DNA of 64,000 bases from a virus. How positions within the stretch are numbered: the first letter of the stretch is position 1; each line of letters starts with the position of its first letter. The DNA lies in IMG/VR virus record IMGVR_UViG_3300026488_000022, positions 1 to 64,000 of that record. The stretch is one strand, 5' to 3'. The notes below the pieces were generated by a model. It worked only from the letters and a program-made list of their open reading frames with translations. It was not told where the DNA came from and did not search any database. The position numbers and the translations under genes are program-made. This document shows, piece by piece, positions 9,209-61,047 of this stretch.

Positions 9209-11422
9209 TTATATTAATATAGCCTTAATTTTTTCACTTTTATAATCATTTTTATAAACACTTTCAACATATATATCATTAATATTATAAGAGCTTACAT
9301 CAAAACTAACTATTGTATCATATCTATCAAATGCATAAGTTTTTAATAAATTATTTCCTTCATAAATATTTAATTGTAAATACTCCTCTGTTTGAGCTTC
9401 TGCGTCCCCTGCTACAACCATATCTGCGTCTTGCAAATCACCACTTAAACCGCCTCTAATAGCTGGTGATACATATAAAATATTGTTTTTAATATATGGA
9501 TTGACCGGATTTAAAGGTTTAAAAACAAAAACATCATTAATTTCTTTTTGCAAATTAGAACTTGGAGATATACTATACATATTTTTATAATAAAAATCAT
9601 AATCCAAAGAAAATTCATTACTACTAATTAAAGTGGCTTCACTGAAATAATTATAAAATACCCAAACTTTACTATCAGCAGTATGCTCTGATTTATTACC
9701 ATTTAAGTTTCTAATAATTCCCTCAATTGTCAATTTTTCAGTAGTACCATTATAACTGATATTTTTAACCGAAATTAACTCATTATTAACAAAAACAGTA
9801 ATTTTCAGTTTTTGCCACTCTTCATCACTTAAATTGTAATTATAAGCTTTACCTTTTACATTTTTTAAAACAAATGTAAAATCTCTATCTATATCTTTTG
9901 TAAAAGGTAAATCAGACTCTAACTCACCATATACAAACAAACCAGACAAATAAGTATTGCTATTATGGTTATTTTTTTCATATACACTGCTAACAATACC
10001 ATTTGTTGTTTTAGCACACACAGGTAATAAATTATACTTTCTTTCTTCTAAATTAGGATTTAAAAACAAATTATTTAAAGGTAATAAATCATAAAATTCT
10101 GGCGGGTCATTTAATTGATAAGTTTTAATAAGAGGGTCGATTGTAGTTTTGTATAATCCATCAGTTTTTGGGACTCTATAAATATCTTCAATCGCCTCAA
10201 TTTCGACATAAGACTGATATTCCTTGTCCCCTCCTATTTTTATAATCCTAAAATACATTTCAGGAATATTTAAACTTTCACTTTTTACTTTTACCAATTT
10301 TCCTATATGTAAATCAGGAAAGTCAAGAAAGTTTAGTTTGCACTTTAAAGTAGCCAATGGTTTTCCGTTTTTTTCAATAATTTTATTAGCAACTTTACTC
10401 ATAGTCTCCGCATTGCTAATTAGCTGAAAAGTATAAGTTTTTGGTTTTTCATACCCTAAAATATTGACTAAAGCCTCATTTTTAATTGTGAAACTATCAG
10501 TATTTCCTGTTGCTAAATTTGTATATTTAAAAGTAAAAGTAGTAAAAACATTAGACCAATCTCCTGTTTTTATTGTCAAATCACTTGCATTATATTCATT
10601 TATCTCATATGCAGGTGTATCTTCTTTTTTTATTAAATAAATTTTCCATTTACCATCTAAAATAGAATAATAAAGCGTTCCATCAATTACTCTTAAAACT
10701 TCTTTTATCCAATCAGTTATAGGCTTTTCAGTAGTCATAATAAAAGACACACCTAAGCCCTCATTTTTACAATAATCAAAAGCCTCTTGAAAACTAACTT
10801 CATCTATTTCATTCTCTGGAATACCAATAAAAGTTCTTAGCATATCATAAATAACAGCAACAGGATTAATATCATAACCTATAGCACTGCCTTTTTGATA
10901 AATATTATTTCCTTCAAAAAATGCATTTTCTAAAACCCATCTTGATAATCTAAATTTATAATTAGGAACTTGAGTTGTATTATCCCCTACAAAAGCGTCT
11001 TTAAAAATTGCACAACAAATATTATTTATTTTAACTTTATCTAATAAAGGATAATCAAAAGTGACAGTCCCGCTTTTTGAGGAAACAGGATAAGATAAAC
11101 CCCTAACTCTACTATCTTCACTATTAAGACTATTGGTATAAATCCTTATGATACTTTTTTCAGAATAATCAGAATGATAAACATCACCCTTTCTACCAGT
11201 AACAACATTTAATTCATAAATCCCTTGTGGAGCATTCTCACTATATAAAGCGGAAGGATTAATATCCCCTTCTCCGTCTAACGTTTTTAAATACTCAATA
11301 TTATCATTCCAACTATAACCTGATACCCAATCGCAATTTTCTACTAAAGCATAAACCATTGTTAAGGCATAGCCATAACCTACTAATTGGCAACCACCTC
11401 CTCTTTTACCACCTCCGCCCAT
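9209..11422 (-). CDS. Central tail tip / baseplate hub protein (lambda J / GTA megatron-like)
   Basis: MGGGGK start, INPVAVIYDML, EGLGVSF, follows DUF2163-like and small tip genes. Confidence 0.75.
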   Translation of the reverse strand: MGGGGKRGGGCQLVGYGYALTMVYALVENCDWVSGYSWNDNIEYLKTLDGEGDINPSALYSENAPQGIYELNVVTGRKGDVYHSDYSEKSIIRIYTNSLNSEDSRVRGLSYPVSSKSGTVTFDYPLLDKVKINNICCAIFKDAFVGDNTTQVPNYKFRLSRWVLENAFFEGNNIYQKGSAIGYDINPVAVIYDMLRTFIGIPENEIDEVSFQEAFDYCKNEGLGVSFIMTTEKPITDWIKEVLRVIDGTLYYSILDGKWKIYLIKKEDTPAYEINEYNASDLTIKTGDWSNVFTTFTFKYTNLATGNTDSFTIKNEALVNILGYEKPKTYTFQLISNAETMSKVANKIIEKNGKPLATLKCKLNFLDFPDLHIGKLVKVKSESLNIPEMYFRIIKIGGDKEYQSYVEIEAIEDIYRVPKTDGLYKTTIDPLIKTYQLNDPPEFYDLLPLNNLFLNPNLEERKYNLLPVCAKTTNGIVSSVYEKNNHNSNTYLSGLFVYGELESDLPFTKDIDRDFTFVLKNVKGKAYNYNLSDEEWQKLKITVFVNNELISVKNISYNGTTEKLTIEGIIRNLNGNKSEHTADSKVWVFYNYFSEATLISSNEFSLDYDFYYKNMYSISPSSNLQKEINDVFVFKPLNPVNPYIKNNILYVSPAIRGGLSGDLQDADMVVAGDAEAQTEEYLQLNIYEGNNLLKTYAFDRYDTIVSFDVSSYNINDIYVESVYKNDYKSEKIKAILI

Positions 11423-23295: not shown

Positions 23296-23303
23296 TATAT
23301 CAG
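23296..23303 (-). promoter_or_regulatory. Putative late promoter CTGATATA
   Basis: 33 bp upstream of the tape measure start. Confidence 0.65.
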
Positions 23304-23492
23304 TATAAAATAAAAGTAAAATTTAATTTAAAAGCTCTATTATAATATATAATAACTTTAAGGGTTTGGACAGTGTTGGACAGTAACAAAAAGCCCTAAA
23401 ATTCGGACTTTTAACAACTTGCAAACATTTATAATCAGTAAAAAATATCATTTGGGCGGTCAAGAACATTTTATAATTTTTGTAAAAAACTC

Positions 23493-23521
23493 TTGACATA
23501 AAGTTAAAAGTGTTTTATAAT
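23493..23521 (+). promoter_or_regulatory. Consensus sigma70 early promoter (cassette type)
   Basis: TTGACA-17 bp-TATAAT followed by AAAGGAG RBS. Confidence 0.88.
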
Positions 23522-23558: not shown

Positions 23559-23945
23559 ATGAAAACTACATTTATAAACACAAGAGCAGATTTAGAAAAA
23601 ATGCTAAAAGAAACAAACAAAGAACTTGCTCTTAAATACTTAGAAATATTTAAAAATAGAATAATTTGGGGACAAGCTGAAAAATTTGACAATAATTATT
23701 ATATAGACATTACATTATTTGAAGACACTGATAGCATAAAAAGAGTTAAAGTATCAAAACCAATATTAGAAAATTCAGAGGATGTTCAAAGGTTTATTAT
23801 GTTTTGTCTTGATGAAAAAGATTATATTCATTATTCGAATATAATCACTGATAAAAAACTAATAGGTTTTATAAATGAATTTTATTTAGACTTAATCTCT
23901 TATCACCATTTAAAAGATGAATTAACAAAGGAAAACAATGAATAA
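23559..23945 (+). CDS. Hypothetical cargo protein, antisense to the late operon
   Basis: ATG 8 nt after AGGAG preferred over TTG 23553. Confidence 0.7.
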   Translation: MKTTFINTRADLEKMLKETNKELALKYLEIFKNRIIWGQAEKFDNNYYIDITLFEDTDSIKRVKVSKPILENSEDVQRFIMFCLDEKDYIHYSNIITDKKLIGFINEFYLDLISYHHLKDELTKENNE

Positions 23946-24198
23946 TTATCCTATTCTTTCATTTAGAGTTTATAGTGTTATTTATAGGGCTTTAGAAAAC
24001 AAAAAAGCTAAGATAACATTAAAACACAAGAAAAAAGGCAATTTTAATGTAGAACATTACATAGTAGAAATTAACAACCCCACTTTAAAAGGAAGTGCTA
24101 TTAGAACATACAAACAATATTTTAAAGATAAAAATTTAGAAAAATTTAAAGAAATAATAAATAAAAATGAAAAGATAATTTTTGAAAAGTTTGAGTAA
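23938..24198 (+). CDS. Hypothetical basic cargo protein
   Basis: Overlaps previous ORF with AAGGA RBS; followed by a hairpin. Confidence 0.65.
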   Translation: MNNYPILSFRVYSVIYRALENKKAKITLKHKKKGNFNVEHYIVEINNPTLKGSAIRTYKQYFKDKNLEKFKEIINKNEKIIFEKFE

Positions 24199-35516: not shown

Positions 35517-35524
35517 TATATCAG
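35517..35524 (-). promoter_or_regulatory. Putative late promoter CTGATATA
   Basis: 32 bp upstream of start 35485. Confidence 0.65.
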
Positions 35525-35714
35525 TATAAAATAAAAGTAAAATTTAATTTAAGAATTCTATTATAATATAATAATAACTTTAAGGGTTTGGACACTTTTG
35601 GACAGTAGCAGAAAGCCCTAAAATTCGGACTTTTAACAACTTGCAAACATTTATAATCAGTAAAAAATGTCATTTCGGCGGTCAAGAGTTTTTTATAATT
35701 TTTGTAAAAAACTC

Positions 35715-35743
35715 TTGACATAAAGTTAAAAGTGTTTTATAAT
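35715..35743 (+). promoter_or_regulatory. Consensus sigma70 early promoter (cassette type)
   Basis: TTGACA-17 bp-TATAAT. Confidence 0.88.
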
Positions 35744-35780: not shown

Positions 35781-35906
35781 ATGAAAAGAGATTTTAATAT
35801 TTTAAAAATATATCAAAGAGAAATAAATTGCAGACCAAAAGTTGTTAAAAACAAAAAGAAATATACAAGGAAAGTAAAGCATAAAAAAGCTTTACTAAAC
35901 TTTTAA
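35781..35906 (+). CDS. 41-aa basic peptide, ArfA-like (alternative ribosome rescue factor resemblance)
   Basis: Not in the track. MKRDFNILKIYQREINCRPKVVKNKKKYTRKVKHKKALLNF, with promoter and AAGGAG RBS; RxxVxKNKK..YxRKxKH pattern. Confidence 0.55.
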   Translation: MKRDFNILKIYQREINCRPKVVKNKKKYTRKVKHKKALLNF

Positions 35907-41225: not shown

Positions 41226-41270
41226 TTATATTACTCTTATAAAAAATTTTAAAATTTTTGTAAAAAACTC

Positions 41271-41299
41271 TTGACATAAAGTAAAAAATATTTTATAAT
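41271..41299 (+). promoter_or_regulatory. Consensus sigma70 early promoter (cassette type, without core element)
   Basis: TTGACA-17 bp-TATAAT with the same flanks as copies C, E, F. Confidence 0.88.
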
Positions 41300-41332
41300 T
41301 CTAAATGTAAAACAAAAAACAAAGGAGAAAAT

Positions 41333-41902
41333 ATGGCAACAATTAAACAACTTGGAGAAATTAAAGTAGTAGAAATTAGAGGGGTTGGAGAAAACATCTC
41401 CGACGAAACTAAAAGAATTTTTTTAAGTAAAAGTGGGTTAAAAATAATTGAAGAATATGAAAGAACAAAAGAAAGCAATCCTGAGGAAGCACCAAGCTGG
41501 GAAGATGTTATTAACAAGCTTGAACTTTATTTTAACAAAAACAACAAACCTATTTTAACTGCTAAAAAAGATAAAACAAAAATAACAATTAACAAATATA
41601 TTGAAAGCAGTTATAGGGGAACTTCTTATATTGAAGAAACAAGTGAAGGAGTTACAATAGTTAGCGCAACAGGTGCTGGAAGACTTGGTGAGCATACTGA
41701 ATTTATTGCTACTATACCAGAAGGATGTTATGTTATTGTTTATAGTGGTGGGAGATATCACAAAGGTTGGACTTGTTTTAAAAATGTAGAAGGAGAACTT
41801 AAAACTTATGAATTTTACAATAGAGGCAAATATGTAGAAAAACCTGATTATGAAGACGCTAAAATAGCTTTTGGATTAATGGATTGTGCTTGTGAAGATT
41901 AA
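41333..41902 (+). CDS. Hypothetical cargo protein, antisense to the late operon
   Basis: Promoter, AAGGAG RBS and 189-aa ORF converging on terL. Confidence 0.75.
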   Translation: MATIKQLGEIKVVEIRGVGENISDETKRIFLSKSGLKIIEEYERTKESNPEEAPSWEDVINKLELYFNKNNKPILTAKKDKTKITINKYIESSYRGTSYIEETSEGVTIVSATGAGRLGEHTEFIATIPEGCYVIVYSGGRYHKGWTCFKNVEGELKTYEFYNRGKYVEKPDYEDAKIAFGLMDCACED

Positions 41903-41905
41903 TTT

Positions 41906-43264
41906 TTACACGACCTGAATTTGTAAATTTTGCAATTTCCACCACCCACTTGTTAAATACCTTAAAGCACCTACGGACAAATCAAAATGTCCGTCCTTGT
42001 TTCTTTCTATTGTTTTTCCATTGCTATTTTCTTTCCAATGAGCTAATTTTAATTCTTCAATCAATTGCATACAATTTTCTGATATGAATAATTTTCCTTT
42101 TTGAAATGCCGTGTTAATGTCCCTAATGCTTTCTACTAATTGAATTGGTGCGGGTTGTGTATAGTAACTATAACTATACGCCATATCTGCCATTGTCAAA
42201 CTTGCACTTGGGTCACAAAATCTTACAATCTGCATATCAGGATTTTCACAATATCTTTGTTCTATTTCTCTAAAATGTTTAATGTGCCATTCAATAGGCA
42301 TTTGCCCCGCCATATATTCATCTAAAACATAAATATTACCAGTCATTGGCTCTATCCAAGCCATAACAAAACTTGTATTGTCCCTAAAACCAATATCAAT
42401 TCCTACTGCAAACGTATCTTTTGTTGTCATTTTATTTTTTAAATCACTAACTCTAAATACATTTTTTTCTAAATCAAAAGCATAAAATACCTGCAAATCC
42501 TCACTAAACCCACTTTGAAACTCACATAAATATTCTTGTTCAAAACTTCTTTTATCAAGTTTTGCTTTTATTGACTCAATCATTTCTTTTGTTATCATAG
42601 GATTATCATAAACTGTAACTTTTTTACAAAAATAATCGTTTCTTTGCCCACATCTTTTCCATAACTTATAAAAATCATTATCAAAAGTTCTTGGTGTTCC
42701 TATAAAATAAGTTTTAGAAAACATAAAGCCGTTTTCATCAGTACCATAATCGTTTTGTGCTGGTGAAATGTAGGTTTCCCAAATTTCAAGAACATTATTT
42801 ATACTCGCAGTTTCATCAAAAATAACTAAACTGAATTTATCTCCAAGTGCATTTTCATAATTTTTTTCTGTAACTACACGAAATTTAGCACCATTTTCTA
42901 ATGTAAATGTTAAACCTTTCATATCCTTTGATTTAAAAGGTAATTGTAGTTTATTTACATCTTTTTCAACATTACTAAAAATAGCTTGTGCATTTGCAAA
43001 TGTAGGTGTTACTAATAATATACTTGCATTAGGAATTAAAAGTTCTGACAATGCAATTTTTGACATAATTGTAGATTTACCTGCCCTTCTTGACATTAAA
43101 AAAACACCAACATTAAAATCAGCTTTTTGTATCCTATCAATTATCTCTTGTTGATATTTTGTAGGTGTAAATTCTAACAATTTTAATACTTTATTATAAT
43201 CAATTTTTCTTTTTACTTTTTTATAAAGTTCTATTTCTTGATTTACAGGTTTAAATTCTGACAT
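41906..43264 (-). CDS. terL: Terminase large subunit
   Basis: Walker A SRRAGKS, Walker B LVIFDE, GTP coupling motif, FEQEYLCEF, nuclease GIDIG. Confidence 0.95.
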   Translation of the reverse strand: MSEFKPVNQEIELYKKVKRKIDYNKVLKLLEFTPTKYQQEIIDRIQKADFNVGVFLMSRRAGKSTIMSKIALSELLIPNASILLVTPTFANAQAIFSNVEKDVNKLQLPFKSKDMKGLTFTLENGAKFRVVTEKNYENALGDKFSLVIFDETASINNVLEIWETYISPAQNDYGTDENGFMFSKTYFIGTPRTFDNDFYKLWKRCGQRNDYFCKKVTVYDNPMITKEMIESIKAKLDKRSFEQEYLCEFQSGFSEDLQVFYAFDLEKNVFRVSDLKNKMTTKDTFAVGIDIGFRDNTSFVMAWIEPMTGNIYVLDEYMAGQMPIEWHIKHFREIEQRYCENPDMQIVRFCDPSASLTMADMAYSYSYYTQPAPIQLVESIRDINTAFQKGKLFISENCMQLIEELKLAHWKENSNGKTIERNKDGHFDLSVGALRYLTSGWWKLQNLQIQVV

Positions 43265-43299: not shown

Positions 43300-43307
43300 T
43301 ATATCAG
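43300..43307 (-). promoter_or_regulatory. Putative late promoter CTGATATA
   Basis: 36 bp upstream of the terL start. Confidence 0.65.
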
Positions 43308-43497
43308 TATAAAATAAAAGTAAAATTTAATTTAAGAATTCTATTATAATATAATAATAACTTTAAGGGTTTGGACACTTTTGGACAGTAGCAGAAAGCC
43401 CTAAAATTCGGACTTTTAATAACTTGCAAACATTTATAATCAGTAAAAAATGTCATTTCGGCGGTCAAGAACATTTTATAATTTTTGTAAAAAACTC

Positions 43498-43526
43498 TTG
43501 ACATAAAGTAAAAAATGTTTTATAAT
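43498..43526 (+). promoter_or_regulatory. Consensus sigma70 early promoter (cassette type)
   Basis: TTGACA-17 bp-TATAAT. Confidence 0.88.
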
Positions 43527-43557
43527 TCCAATACAAATAAAAACAAAGGAGAATAAA

Positions 43558-44022
43558 ATGGAATATAGCGTAATAATAAATCTAACTCAACATAAAGCAA
43601 CTGAAGAACAAAAACAGGCAGGTGTGATAGACCTGCCAGAAAAATATCAAACAAAATTAAGAACACTTTTAACGTTTAATGAATTACCAAATTGTAAAGA
43701 AATCACTAATAGAGCTGAAAAAATAGGAGATTTAGTTTTAGAATTTTTATCAGATAATTTAAGTCCTGTTAAAAACGAAGTTGAACAAATTTTAAAATTA
43801 GATGAAATTAAACAAATTGAAGAATTTGAAAAACTAAATTTAGGTTTTATGATAGGTGGAGCGCCTTATCTTATGGGCGCTTTAGAAGAAGAACTAAGTT
43901 ATTTTGGGACACCTTTATATGCCTTTACAAAAAGAATTGTAGAAGAAATAAAAAAATCAGACGGAACAGTAGAAAAGAAAGCAATATTCAAACACGAAGG
44001 CTTTGTTCCTGCTTGTATTTAA
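43558..44022 (+). CDS. Csx20/Csx15-like CARF-related protein; candidate cyclic-oligoadenylate ring nuclease
   Basis: NLTQH..TEEQ, MIGGAPYLM, PLYAFTKR..EE....DG...K..IFKH..F match my recollection of the Csx20 pattern. Confidence 0.55.
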   Translation: MEYSVIINLTQHKATEEQKQAGVIDLPEKYQTKLRTLLTFNELPNCKEITNRAEKIGDLVLEFLSDNLSPVKNEVEQILKLDEIKQIEEFEKLNLGFMIGGAPYLMGALEEELSYFGTPLYAFTKRIVEEIKKSDGTVEKKAIFKHEGFVPACI

Positions 44023-44546
44023 TCTTTTATAACTTGATTTAAAATATTGACAAAAACATTTCCTGTTGTTCCTAATTTTTTTCTTTCTTCTTCTTTCATA
44101 ATATCATCAAGCATTTTAGCTACATCTAAAATATCTTTGTCAGTAGCATTAGCAAAATCACCTCCTTGTTTTTCAATTTGTTCTATTTTATCTTCTAATG
44201 TTCTCATAACAACAGAAACTACAACATTTTTAGCATTTTCTTTTATTTCTTTCATAATTGCATTATAAAAATCTTTAACATAAGGTTTTGATAAAGTTCT
44301 ACTAATATATTGATATGGCAAACCAAGTTCAATTGCTATTCTTTTATTGCTATAACCTTTTGCTTTCATTTCTACAATATATCTTTCAACTGTTGATAAA
44401 GGTTTATCGAAATTAACATTTGTAAATTCTAAAACTTCAGTAGAAACTTTATTGTTTTTAACATTAGCGTCTGGTAAATTTTCTAATTCTTCTTTTTCTA
44501 CAACTGCCACAGGAGTTATTTCTTTAGTTTCTTTATTCTTCATCAA
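44019..44546 (-). CDS. Probable terminase small subunit
   Basis: HTH (GYSNKRIAIELGLP..YIS), helical body with TDKDILD, nearest same-strand gene upstream of terL; T5-like. Confidence 0.7.
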   Translation of the reverse strand: MMKNKETKEITPVAVVEKEELENLPDANVKNNKVSTEVLEFTNVNFDKPLSTVERYIVEMKAKGYSNKRIAIELGLPYQYISRTLSKPYVKDFYNAIMKEIKENAKNVVVSVVMRTLEDKIEQIEKQGGDFANATDKDILDVAKMLDDIMKEEERKKLGTTGNVFVNILNQVIKD

Positions 44547-45154: not shown

Positions 45155-45162
45155 TATATCAG
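45155..45162 (-). promoter_or_regulatory. Putative late promoter CTGATATA
   Basis: 34 bp upstream of start 45121. Confidence 0.65.
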
Positions 45163-45320
45163 TATAAAAATAAAAGTAAAATTTAATTTAAAAAACTCTA
45201 TTATAATATATAAAAACTTTAAGGGTTTGGACACTTTGGACAGTAACAAAAAGCCCTAAAATTCGGACTTTGTTGATAACGTAAATTAAATTTTAGTTGT
45301 TTTTTGTTAATTTCGGCGGT
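45155..45320. repeat. Dispersed element, copy G (unrelated 38-bp spacer)
   Basis: Left box to 45271, spacer 45272-45309, ATTTCGGCGGT at 45310-45320 inside the DUF1353 3' end. Confidence 0.93.
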
Positions 45321-56194: not shown

Positions 56195-56521
56195 TTAATA
56201 TTCGTTTTTTATTTTTAATTTTTTTATAAAATTAAGCCATCTTTTTTCTTTTATTTCTTTAAATTCACCTTTATCATACCAATACCATTTTTTAAGCTTC
56301 CTGTTATAGAAAGCTTTTTCATTTAAAATTAAAAATTTTTCAATATCTTTCCACAAATATTTTGGGAGATGGTCGTCAGCTGCCCATCTCCCATTGTTAT
56401 ACAAAAAAATGTTTCCTCCTTTACTAAAAGAAGGTCCTTCAAATACATACCATACTCTTCCCATTTTATCGTTGTCTATTTTCCACTTATACTTTCTCAG
56501 CTCAATTTGTATGTTTAACAT
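56195..56521 (-). CDS. Hypothetical early protein (Trp/Lys rich)
   Basis: AAGGAG RBS, last gene of an early operon. Confidence 0.65.
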   Translation of the reverse strand: MLNIQIELRKYKWKIDNDKMGRVWYVFEGPSFSKGGNIFLYNNGRWAADDHLPKYLWKDIEKFLILNEKAFYNRKLKKWYWYDKGEFKEIKEKRWLNFIKKLKIKNEY

Positions 56522-56537: not shown

Positions 56538-56945
56538 TTAATTAATTCTGTAAATAAAAAATATTTTATCATCTACTATAAATTCTCTTTCTTCGCTGTC
56601 ATAAGGAGCAAGGATACTCCCTGCTCCGTCTGACAGCAAAACATCCTCAATCCAGGCCTCTACATCTATGTAATATTGTAGAGGCTCTGGGACTTCTGGA
56701 GCATAACACTCTTCATAAATTTCAGATAGTTTGTCTTTCGCAAACTCTTTAACAGCATCATAATTATCAAAAATTAGAAATTGACGACAACTGCAATCAG
56801 TGAAGAGATAATTACTTTTTTCATAAAATCTACAATTTTTTATTTCTTTTGTAGGTATTTCAAAAACTTTTGCTAAATTTTTTAAATCTTCTCTACTTTT
56901 AATGTTAAAAAACTCTATAATTTCTTTAAAAGTTAATTCTTTCAT
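56538..56945 (-). CDS. Acidic early protein with ArdA-like C-terminal motif
   Basis: EVPEPLQYYIDVEAWIEDVLLSDG. Confidence 0.45.
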   Translation of the reverse strand: MKELTFKEIIEFFNIKSREDLKNLAKVFEIPTKEIKNCRFYEKSNYLFTDCSCRQFLIFDNYDAVKEFAKDKLSEIYEECYAPEVPEPLQYYIDVEAWIEDVLLSDGAGSILAPYDSEEREFIVDDKIFFIYRIN

Positions 56946-57241
56946 TTTATTCCTCCTCTTTTTGTTTTTAATTTTTCATCAATTTTTTCTATTTTTTCTT
57001 TAGTATTCTCTACATATTCGACAATTTTAGCTAAAATTTTTTCAAGCTCTTCAATCTCCTCAATTTTAACAAATAATTTTCCTGAATTCACGTCATAATA
57101 AACGTGAGGAAAATCATTATAATCAATTTTTGCAATAACCTCGTCAGCACCTGCTCTTCTTATAATGAATTCATCAGTAAATTCATTGTAAGTTACATTT
57201 AGAGATTTTAAAAATTTATTTAATTTTACTTCAAATTTCAT
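56942..57241 (-). CDS. Hypothetical early protein
   Basis: AAGGAG RBS identical in context to that of 57594. Confidence 0.65.
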   Translation of the reverse strand: MKFEVKLNKFLKSLNVTYNEFTDEFIIRRAGADEVIAKIDYNDFPHVYYDVNSGKLFVKIEEIEELEKILAKIVEYVENTKEKIEKIDEKLKTKRGGIK

Positions 57242-57330: not shown

Positions 57331-57594
57331 TTATTTAAAACACTCTTCTTCTTCCCTTAATCTTTCTTTATACCACGAAACCCATTTTTGTGGGTTTCTT
57401 GGAGCTATTACCCAGCTCCAATTATATTCTACTACTACATCCCCATCTCTTTCAAAAGGGGTAGCAAATTCAACTGCCACCCAGTCATTAATTATCTCAA
57501 TAGAGCGGAAAATTTCCGCTCCTTCTATTTTATTTTTTACTTTTCTCATTTCTTTTAATATTTTTTTAGCTTCTTTTAGTGTTATTTCTTTCAT
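57331..57594 (-). CDS. Hypothetical early protein
   Basis: First gene after the cassette-type promoter. Confidence 0.7.
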   Translation of the reverse strand: MKEITLKEAKKILKEMRKVKNKIEGAEIFRSIEIINDWVAVEFATPFERDGDVVVEYNWSWVIAPRNPQKWVSWYKERLREEEECFK

Positions 57595-57633: not shown

Positions 57634-57662
57634 ATTATAAAATATTTTTTACTTTATGTCAA
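57634..57662 (-). promoter_or_regulatory. Consensus sigma70 early promoter (cassette type)
   Basis: TTGACA-17 bp-TATAAT with same flanks as 41271. Confidence 0.88.
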
Positions 57663-57823
57663 GAGTTTTTTACCTTTTTTCAAAAATTTTTAAAAAATTT
57701 GTTTGCTTATAAATTGTATATACATTATATATAAAAAATAGCTCCAAAAAATTTAAGTGCTAAACACCAAAAATTTTGTATTACTAATTTTTGTAAAATA
57801 ATCAAATTTTATTCAATAATATA

Positions 57824-60294: not shown

Positions 60295-60888
60295 TTAATT
60301 TACTTCAAATAAATATAGCAAAATCGGATTAGACCAAGAGCCTTCTTCTTCTGATAAAAAGAAAAATTTATTCCCTTTTTTTATTAATGTAATATCTTTT
60401 CTTGCAAAATATTTGTTTAGCAATCTGTGCAAGATTACAGTTTCTTTTTCTTTTAGATTGCAGTGATACTCCACGAGAGTATCATCCCACTGATATGCTC
60501 TTTTGTATTTTTTCACTTTTTTAAGTCTAAAAGATGTAATATTTCTTTTTAACAATTCATTTAATAGTTCTATCTCGTTAATTGTATGATTAATATCTTC
60601 TACAATTAGCCCACGTTGATTATCATTGTAATCAACATTTCTTTTACATCTTTCACATTCCTCTGTGTATGCACCAAATGCCTCTTCACACTCTTCATAA
60701 GTGTAAAGAGGGTCATACGCTTCATACTCCTCTTCAAGATATTTAAGAGCTTCTTGGAGGTCTTTAATTTTTCTTCTAATTAAATTTTTATTTATAACTA
60801 CCTCTTCTTTTTCTTCTTTTTTTAAAGGGATTTCTAATCTATAATTATCATAAAGTTCTTTAAAGTTGATTTTAGTTAAAATATCCAT
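60295..60888 (-). CDS. Hypothetical early protein; start revised to MDILTK
   Basis: Track start 60939 lies inside the promoter; AAGGAG precedes ATG 60888. Confidence 0.7.
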   Translation of the reverse strand: MDILTKINFKELYDNYRLEIPLKKEEKEEVVINKNLIRRKIKDLQEALKYLEEEYEAYDPLYTYEECEEAFGAYTEECERCKRNVDYNDNQRGLIVEDINHTINEIELLNELLKRNITSFRLKKVKKYKRAYQWDDTLVEYHCNLKEKETVILHRLLNKYFARKDITLIKKGNKFFFLSEEEGSWSNPILLYLFEVN

Positions 60889-60927: not shown

Positions 60928-60956
60928 ATTATAAAACATTTTTTACTTTATGTCAA
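60928..60956 (-). promoter_or_regulatory. Consensus sigma70 early promoter (cassette type)
   Basis: TTGACA-17 bp-TATAAT with same flanks as 43498. Confidence 0.88.
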
Positions 60957-61047
60957 GAGTTTTTTACAAAAAATAAAAAATTCTTTGAAATTACAAAAGA
61001 AAAGAGGTTTTTGTAGATTTGTTTTTAACTAATTTTAATATTAAAAG

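Follow-up and report, generated by a model that had tools for sequence, protein, structure and literature searches.

To our knowledge, few anti-CRISPR mechanisms directed at type III systems have been described, and the validated viral ring nucleases are the AcrIII-1 family and a recent viral SAVED protein. The closest described relative of the gene studied here, Csx20, is an experimentally shown ring nuclease of cyclic tetra-adenylate (cA4), which acts independently of metal and has minor activity on cyclic tri-adenylate (cA3) at high enzyme concentration (10.1101/2024.09.24.614671 = PMC12409355). It has a derived CARF-like Rossmann fold, was modelled as a dimer and was found in 4 of 28,114 phage genomes (PMC12409355). 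A 2026 paper reports csx20 homologues in Aca14-regulated anti-CRISPR operons and suggests their co-option for counter-defence (PMC13551039); the idea that phages use Csx20 in counter-defence is already in print. Here we describe a Csx20-like gene in a window of 64,000 nucleotides (nt) of phage DNA, positions 1 to 64,000 of the IMG/VR virus record IMGVR_UViG_3300026488_000022. We propose that its product is an early-expressed cA4 ring nuclease which blunts type III CRISPR signalling as a means of counter-defence, and we put the probability of this reading slightly above one half (about 0.55). The proposal draws on homology, on the residues invariant in Csx20, on a predicted dimer, on the behaviour of the gene as a mobile accessory gene and on its co-regulation with a homologue of an anti-restriction protein. 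The gene is a credible anti-defence candidate, and genes of its kind have been pointed out before.

The gene is a stop-free open reading frame (ORF) encoding a protein of 154 amino acids (aa), and its coordinates, together with those of the other features, are presented in Table 1. The protein contains NLTQHKATEEQ (residues 8-18), MIGGAPYLM (98-106) and TPLYAFTKRIVEE...DGTVEKKAIFKHEGF (118-149), the three motifs that a first-pass annotation of this DNA had quoted, each in the place given there. A word-indexed search returned 224 homologues (best E 7e-68), the closest of them with 73% identity. An exhaustive search of 1.84 billion representatives gave 1603 clusters at E <= 1e-3 and 998 clusters at E <= 1e-10; the clusters of this search are drawn at 50% identity, and the clade comprises at least 1603 of them. 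The presence of 224 homologues and 1603 representative clusters means that the ORF is not a product of chance. Among 50 aligned members, N8, T10, Q11, H12, Q18, F40, G101, A102, R126, K140, F144 and G148 do not vary. The quoted motifs coincide with all of these columns except F40 and therefore represent the conserved core of the family, of which the window copy keeps every invariant residue.

The sole family matched by the protein in an NCBIfam scan is CAS_Csx20 (NF040559, E 1.5e-8), with a score of 35 bits against a curated cut-off of 70 and an aligned part restricted to residues 118-149, which form the C-terminal hairpin. A six-frame search with the same model gave 29.3 bits for the gene, and 48 of the 50 relatives match the model as well, all of them under the cut-off. 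A precomputed match to Pfam PF27247.1 is present for the window protein and for all 120 listed homologues, and the nearest clusters of the protein atlas, in which the family goes by the name MJ1673, are 83-100% PF27247. PF27247 (MJ1673) is named after the Csx20 of the type III locus of M. jannaschii, and in the M. jannaschii genome, which served as a control, the NCBIfam Csx20 model scores above its cut-off. No family was found at E <= 10 for the window protein in a copy of Pfam that predates PF27247, and a search of PHROGs with the protein gave no match.

Bona fide Csx20 was taken from 301 genomes of the phylum holding Thermoanaerobacter, 16 of which have canonical matches scoring 138-165 bits; 13 of these proteins were used for the profile comparison. 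Canonical Csx20 was not found in the 301 cyanobacterial genomes searched. The canonical genes are neighboured by ORFs of about 450 aa with Csx1-like N-termini and by Cas6-like ORFs (labels assigned by eye), or else are fused into proteins of 572-605 aa. Alignment of the 50-member clade profile to the 13 canonical proteins with hhalign gave a probability of 97.4% (E 8.9e-12, 122 columns) and paired the residues (clade/canonical) H12/H10, Q18/Q16, G101-A102/G78-A79, R126/R101, F144/F118, H146/H120 and F149/F123. The clade residues paired with canonical invariants are invariant or near-invariant within the clade. Assignment to the Csx20 family, as made in the first-pass annotation, is thus in agreement with the NCBIfam match, with the 48 relatives and with the hhalign result, and the Csx20 motifs that it had given (SH.LT..Q, QG, Y.TT.R and F.H..F) are indeed seen in the canonical proteins. 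The assignment needs qualification in that the window protein is not a canonical Csx20. With the clade profile (A1) the window protein scores 177 bits and the canonical proteins 17-31 bits; with the canonical profile (A2) the window protein scores 24 bits and the canonical proteins 182-205 bits. A FastTree phylogeny of 160 rows separates the clade from canonical Csx20 with 100% support and a long branch. One genome (G306) has a canonical copy that scores 157 bits and a second one, from the present clade, that scores 36 bits, and the distribution of NF040559 scores is therefore bimodal rather than continuous. From these sequence comparisons, we consider the window protein to be a Csx20 homologue in a distinct sister clade, and not Csx20 in the strict CRISPR-associated sense. 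Literature searches with PF27247, MJ1673 and Crn5 yielded no paper on the clade, Crn5 being a SAVED protein, and no experimental test of any clade member was found in the library searched.

An AlphaFold2 model built from a 50-row alignment has a pLDDT of 97.2 and a pTM of 0.88. The modelled elements follow the order beta1 (residues 5-8), NLTQH loop, helices, central strand (95-99), GGAP loop and C-terminal beta-hairpin (118-151), the last of which bears R126, K140, F144 and H146. Residues 66-93 form two extra helices, an insert of about 30 residues that the subclade carries and that is absent from most relatives. Searches of PDB sequences with the protein and with both profiles found no solved relative. 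Foldseek against the PDB returned nothing at E <= 0.1, its top rows being a Cap4 SAVED domain and a Cad1 CARF domain. The wide VIA fold search reached Z scores of at most 6.2, with Cap5 SAVED at 5.2; C-domains of Asp/Glu racemases at the top of this search (Z 5.2-6.2) were read as generic Rossmann likeness and set aside. A second-look fold search gave 50 rows, over half of them CARF or SAVED domains. Among the CARF domains, Cam1 with cyclic hexa-adenylate (cA6) matches best (8t66; Z 5.5, root-mean-square deviation 3.7, 111 residues aligned), and further matches include SAVED-CHAT (Z 5.0), Cap5 (Z 4.9-5.2), Csm6, Cad1 and Cap4. Ring nucleases are also present among the matches, namely the viral SAVED protein 9r8s (Z 3.9), Sis0811 (Z 3.8) and Sso2081 (Z 3.3-3.4). 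Since the noise guide of the tool is Z 8 and every Z obtained here lies below it, we regard the matches as too weak to assign a fold. The enrichment of CARF and SAVED domains fits the published view of Csx20 as a CARF-like Rossmann protein, and the CARF-related fold proposed in the first-pass annotation is recovered weakly in the fold searches (Z <= 5.5) and not at all by Foldseek at the above threshold.

The protein is predicted to form a symmetric homodimer, with a score of 0.78 against 0.00 for the best control, agreement between runs on at least 96% of the contacts and a pLDDT of at least 90. Of 30 proteins solved as same-chain pairs, 20 attain this mark, as does 1 of the 23 that were solved as a single chain; the present run used its own alignment and two AMP molecules, which differs from the calibration of the tool, and the ligand placement carries no score. 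The predicted interface is formed by residues 40-46, 99-108, 121-125 and 147-153, the first three of these segments being conserved, and the GGAP loops therefore meet at the two-fold axis of the predicted dimer. His12, Gln18, Arg126, Lys140 and His146 lie outside the interface. Two complete modules are found in tandem within one chain in 15 natural proteins of 260-670 aa, which gives independent support for a dimeric unit. SAVED domains arose by duplication of CARF domains, and the tandem Csx20-like modules recall the same route. Ten longer members were searched for a fusion clue and have no Pfam domain outside the duplicated module.

We propose that the protein works as a stand-alone homodimer of the Csx20/MJ1673 family with a CARF-like derived Rossmann fold. 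It would be transcribed from a host-type sigma-70 promoter, probably early in infection and without dependence on the late packaging genes around it. In analogy to Csx20, one face of the dimer may carry a composite site for cA4, with the GGAP loops at the two-fold axis and the invariant His12, Gln18, Arg126, Lys140 and His146 around the ligand. cA4 would then be cut to linear products without metal, and the second messenger from Cas10 would be gone before Csx1-type effectors switch on. Binding and catalysis are inseparable from sequence alone, and it is conceivable that the dimer holds cyclic oligoadenylate (cOA) tightly and does not cleave it. Phage sponges for cyclic nucleotides are common. 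We nevertheless find such a sponge quite improbable, because the positions that match the canonical invariant His and Arg are invariant in the present clade as well and canonical Csx20 acts by turnover. Sponges that work by stoichiometry tend to be produced abundantly, and the promoter strength suits either model. A role as sponge was weighed for Csx15 after that protein showed no activity (PMC12409355).

The promoter of the Csx20-like gene matches the consensus of host sigma-70 promoters at every position and is part of a repeated cassette. The exact pattern TTGACA-17-TATAAT occurs 8 times in the window where 0.05 occurrences are expected. A block of about 110 nt is present six times in the window in near-identical form; in it, a conserved upstream stretch leads into TTGACATAAAGT...TATAAT, and the A-rich leader, AAGGAG and ATG follow. 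Each of the four plus-strand cassettes stands ahead of a small gene or gene pair and opposes the late structural genes. The cassette at 57634 drives a four-gene operon, the third gene of which (56538-56945, minus strand) is similar to ArdA, an anti-restriction protein; its Pfam match has E 1.1e-5 and 26.5 bits, just short of the cut-off of 27, and its match to phrog_2059 has E 2.5e-4. The Csx20-like gene and the ArdA-like gene lie behind the same cassette, and this promoter class is therefore common to at least one other probable anti-defence gene. No family could be given to the other cargo at 23559-23945, 23938-24198, 35781-35906, 41333-41902, 57331-57594, 56942-57241, 56195-56521 and 60295-60888. 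Early expression of the cassette class is suggested by the host sigma-70 consensus. Of the strong early promoter noted in the first-pass annotation, the sequence is borne out by the 12/12 match, and the timing is deduced from the promoter type only.

A repeated intergenic element (Table 1) precedes three of the cassettes. Three of its copies contain the same spurious minus-strand ORF of 58-66 aa (23323-23499, 35521-35721 and 43304-43504), and the element includes a hairpin scored as a minus-strand terminator (45271-45250). The element probably combines a late-strand terminator and promoter with a plus-strand promoter. The Csx20-like gene is monocistronic, with no aca or ribbon-helix-helix (RHH) gene downstream, and reads directly into the convergent terS gene.

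A sister phage offers a view of how the gene is gained and lost. This phage, a 78.9-kb IMG/VR contig (L116), has a terL of 93% and a terS of 82% identity, and its genes stand in the same order. At the same position (L116:10001-10461) it carries a Csx20-like copy which is a decayed pseudogene: codon 38 is TAA, one A is deleted from an A-run (window position 43718) and GGAP is changed to GGAS. Unrelated sequence stands in place of the consensus promoter cassette. The 189-aa cargo gene of the window (41333-41902, plus strand) is absent from the sister phage, where its neighbours are separated by 68 nt (L116:6994-9230). In the likely source run of the window (X1), one contig is identical to the window over 43499-44205, another is divergent and shares the 1-nt deletion at 43718, and there is a contig which joins 41243 to 41906 and bypasses the 189-aa gene. 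Taken together, the absence in L116 and the joint in run X1 identify the 189-aa gene as a presence/absence polymorphism in one population. Runs of two further studies hold contigs with an intact, almost unchanged Csx20-like gene. The co-existence of decayed and intact copies indicates that the Csx20-like gene is dispensable and is gained and lost in the manner of accessory counter-defence genes.

The stop at codon 38 and the frameshift in the sister copy, and the co-occurrence of that variant in the same sample, could also be taken as a sign that the window copy itself is a functionless remnant nearing loss. This appears extremely improbable, as the window copy is intact with all family-invariant residues, has a perfect promoter and Shine-Dalgarno sequence and a predicted fold with a pLDDT of 97, and recurs near-unchanged in the runs of the two further studies. 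The window copy is the maintained one.

Relatives of the protein are widespread among mobile elements. In IMG/VR, 193 of 220 pattern matches encode a relative, giving at least 193 viral contigs. Among cultured phages, tblastn identified relatives in Rhodothermus phage RM378 and Fusobacterium phage JD-Fnp6, as well as a partial copy in Pasteurella phage Pm86; the clade profile gives RM378 and the Pm86 fragment much higher scores than the canonical profile does. Plasmids contribute 140 matching records. The best plasmid match, which with 64% identity is also the nearest annotated homologue, lies on a 92-kb non-mobilizable plasmid of the vent bacterium Caminibacter pacificus (NZ_CP040940.1 56579-57058, L177:7995-8474), and the rest are mostly distant matches on conjugative enterobacterial plasmids. 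The reference genomes contain 75 loci of the clade. In the tree of 160 rows, viral and cellular rows are thoroughly mixed, and one Taylorella protein is identical to the protein of a viral contig.

The genomic surroundings of the clade are variable. When the 1996 ORFs within 5 kb of 150 clade loci were clustered, no neighbour cluster occurred in more than 12 loci. None of the 150 loci shares the Csx1-like or Cas6-like neighbours of canonical Csx20, and no adjoining Cas10 or Csx1 was seen in the loci examined. An apparent proximity of Cas10 in genomes G614 and G612 was discarded, the matches being on other contigs whose coordinates happened to coincide. DNA methylases and SNF2 helicases recur beside the gene on viral contigs, though in no more than 5 to 8 loci, and recurrent neighbour clusters are limited to Patescibacteria (Saccharibacteria, Paceibacterota and relatives), where the chromosomal neighbours are TrmB (12 loci), RNase Y (8), ClpP (7) and trigger factor (5). 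Stable neighbours are missing outside Patescibacteria; the clade thus behaves as an accessory gene that stands alone on mobile elements, and it has a stable chromosomal lineage in Patescibacteria. The Cas10/Cmr2 model (TIGR02577) has matches in 13 of 40 host genomes, where checkable never on the contig of the gene itself, and matches none of 16 Patescibacteria carrier genomes.

Housekeeping neighbours on Patescibacteria chromosomes, genomes of that group without a Cas10/Cmr2 match among those checked, and the extra regions of longer members, which lack any known domain, would suit a function unconnected with defence signals, such as one in the metabolism of RNA or of nucleotide ends, by which the phage copy would serve the nucleic-acid metabolism of phage or host. 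We judge such a function quite unlikely for the window gene, given that homologues of known activity are all ring nucleases (PMC12409355), that stable neighbours are missing outside Patescibacteria and the gene behaves as a mobile accessory, and that its promoter class in the phage is common with an anti-restriction homologue.

The same distribution bears on the identity of the signal. The protein might have another cyclic-nucleotide target (cA3, a different signal or a broad range) and counter antiphage signalling systems based on cyclic oligonucleotides (CBASS) or other systems that use cOA. The clade diverges from canonical Csx20 and is carried by conjugative plasmids of enterobacteria and by genomes that gave no Cas10 match, Cas10 is rare in the sampled Campylobacteria, and CBASS SAVED receptors are as frequent as CARF domains among the fold matches. 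Moreover, Csx20 degrades cA3 at high enzyme concentration (PMC12409355). However, the sole assayed relatives favour cA4 (PMC12409355), the residues invariant in canonical Csx20 are kept and this analysis brought up no link of the gene to CBASS, and a different target therefore seems unlikely to us.

Several observations weigh against a cA4 ring nuclease directed at type III CRISPR. The ring-nuclease enzymology comes from canonical Csx20 alone and not from the present clade, from which canonical Csx20 is separated by the long, fully supported branch, so that specificity or activity may differ. The window protein lies below the curated Csx20 cut-off, and all fold matches, at Z 6.2 or less, are in the non-diagnostic range of the tool. 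A broken copy is tolerated in the sister phage. Many carriers of the clade are without detectable Cas10, and the chromosomal lineage of Patescibacteria, with its 0 of 16 genomes, indicates that type III CRISPR is not the only context of the family. Distant members occur on enterobacterial conjugative plasmids, on which type III systems are rare. The phage itself is placed by habitat alone (hydrothermal vent metagenomes); in the Campylobacteria, suggested as a possible host class by habitat and the closest homologues alone, a Cas10/Cmr2 match was obtained in just 4 of 201 sampled genomes, with a Cmr2-type model only.

The window is part of an 80,614-bp IMG/VR virus contig with direct terminal repeats and a G+C content of about 27%, which is a complete vent phage. 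Hydrothermal-vent metagenome runs from several studies contain sequence near-identical to the window; no RNA run is listed among the public runs with such sequence. The Csx20-like gene sits between terS and terL and is antisense to both, and terS is convergent with it and overlaps its stop by 4 nt. This location was given correctly in the first-pass annotation, as the Terminase_6N and phrog_3802 matches of the two neighbours agree. The Caminibacter pacificus plasmid was considered as a pointer to the host of the phage and rejected, since it shows no terL relation to the phage. The homologue on this plasmid is annotated as a "hypothetical protein" and has unannotated genes, a PAPS-reductase-family gene and an LPD29 gene as neighbours. 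A terminator-like hairpin (43617-43637, minus strand; 7 pairs followed by a T-run) lies within the Csx20-like coding sequence over the conserved AGVIDLP codons, and it could be a stop for antisense read-through from terS or a mere by-product of coding.

Table 1. Features of the Csx20-like locus and of the phage window, with related loci and proteins of the clade
Feature	Position or identifier	Strand	Basis or remark
Coding sequence of the 154-aa Csx20-like protein (Pfam PF27247/MJ1673), stop included	43558..44022	+	Stop-free ORF, PF27247, NF040559, hhalign, AlphaFold2
Promoter cassette: conserved upstream block, -35 TTGACA (43498-43503), 17-nt spacer, -10 TATAAT (43521-43526)	43482..43526	+	Consensus match 12/12
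A-rich 5' leader with Shine-Dalgarno AAGGAG (43546-43551), 6 nt ahead of ATG	43527..43557	+	Read from sequence; leader kept among cassette copies
Six cassettes, plus-strand copies	23477-23521, 35699-35743, 41255-41299, 43482-43526	+	Near-identical, different small genes downstream
Six cassettes, minus-strand copies	57634-57678, 60928-60972	-	Near-identical, different small genes downstream
Repeated intergenic element (direct repeat D1) upstream of the cassette	43300..43481		Other copies 23296-23476, 35517-35698, 45155-45271
Large terminase subunit (terL)	41906..43264	-	Pfam Terminase_6N E 2.8e-10; tblastn matches to annotated phage terL genes
Small terminase subunit (terS)	44019..44546	-	phrog_3802 E 1.6e-6; weak helix-turn-helix matches
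Patescibacteria loci, examples	L045, L052, L057, L058, L060, L066, L048, L056		Gene around position 10000
Tandem two-module proteins	P0008, P0011, P0013, P0124, P0126, P0130, P0133, P0134, P0137, P0143, P0146, P0150, P0154, P0165, P0177		

What is new in the present analysis is that the genes of phages and plasmids make up a large clade which is not linked to CRISPR loci and is not called by the curated Csx20 model. Since that model misses the clade, published counts of viral ring nucleases may be underestimates. The clade also takes in single-chain duplicated forms and a chromosomal Patescibacterial lineage, and one phage population offers an intact copy beside a naturally broken one. The complete vent phage thus provides an intact, well-expressed-looking phage example of a Csx20-like gene, and the sister phage with its broken copy and the carriers without a Cas10/Cmr2 match are handles on the question of which signal is removed. 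A wider proposal, which we regard as speculative and somewhat unlikely, is that the clade constitutes a major viral and plasmid family of cOA-degrading anti-defence enzymes, of at least 1603 clusters and including tandem "pseudo-dimers", which stands apart from CRISPR-associated Csx20, possibly with shifted or broadened substrates, and has a second life in Patescibacteria without type III CRISPR.

In comparison to canonical Csx20, the window protein belongs to the same Pfam family, shows profile homology over the full length, is similar in size and is likewise predicted to be a dimer. In both, the loop behind beta1 bears the invariant His, the central strand leads into a Gly-Ala loop, and a C-terminal hairpin carries Y..R and F.H..F. 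The details of the motifs differ: the window protein has NLTQH in place of FSH.LT, MIGGAP in place of QGDFGAT and LTF..LP in place of LP..L..W..IPP, and its subclade has the helical insert of about 30 residues (66-93). Moreover, canonical Csx20 adjoins or is fused with Csx1 or Cas6, whereas the window gene is not. Crn1 (Sso2081 and Sis0811) and the viral SAVED ring nuclease are metal-independent cA4 phosphodiesterases on a CARF/SAVED scaffold and are found among the weak fold matches, but have no sequence similarity to the window protein.

In its proposed role, the protein is similar to AcrIII-1/Crn2 (DUF1874), a small dimeric viral enzyme that destroys cA4 against type III CRISPR (PMC12409355). 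AcrIII-1 is an experimentally validated anti-CRISPR, whereas the window protein is a candidate by homology. The two had been held to be distinct in the first-pass annotation, which is consistent with the lack of detectable similarity; DUF1874 (PF08960) has no match anywhere in the 80.6-kb phage record and is absent from the fold-search lists. The nearest parallel in setting is provided by the csx20 homologues of Pasteurella and others in operons controlled by Aca14 (an RHH protein), which are likewise located on mobile elements and have been proposed to be co-opted for counter-defence (PMC13551039). The window gene differs from them in standing under a phage-wide repeated cassette and not under an Aca-controlled promoter. 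The fragment in Pasteurella phage Pm86 scores 79 bits with the clade profile and 21 bits with the canonical profile, which places at least this copy from a Pasteurella phage in the clade of the gene described here.

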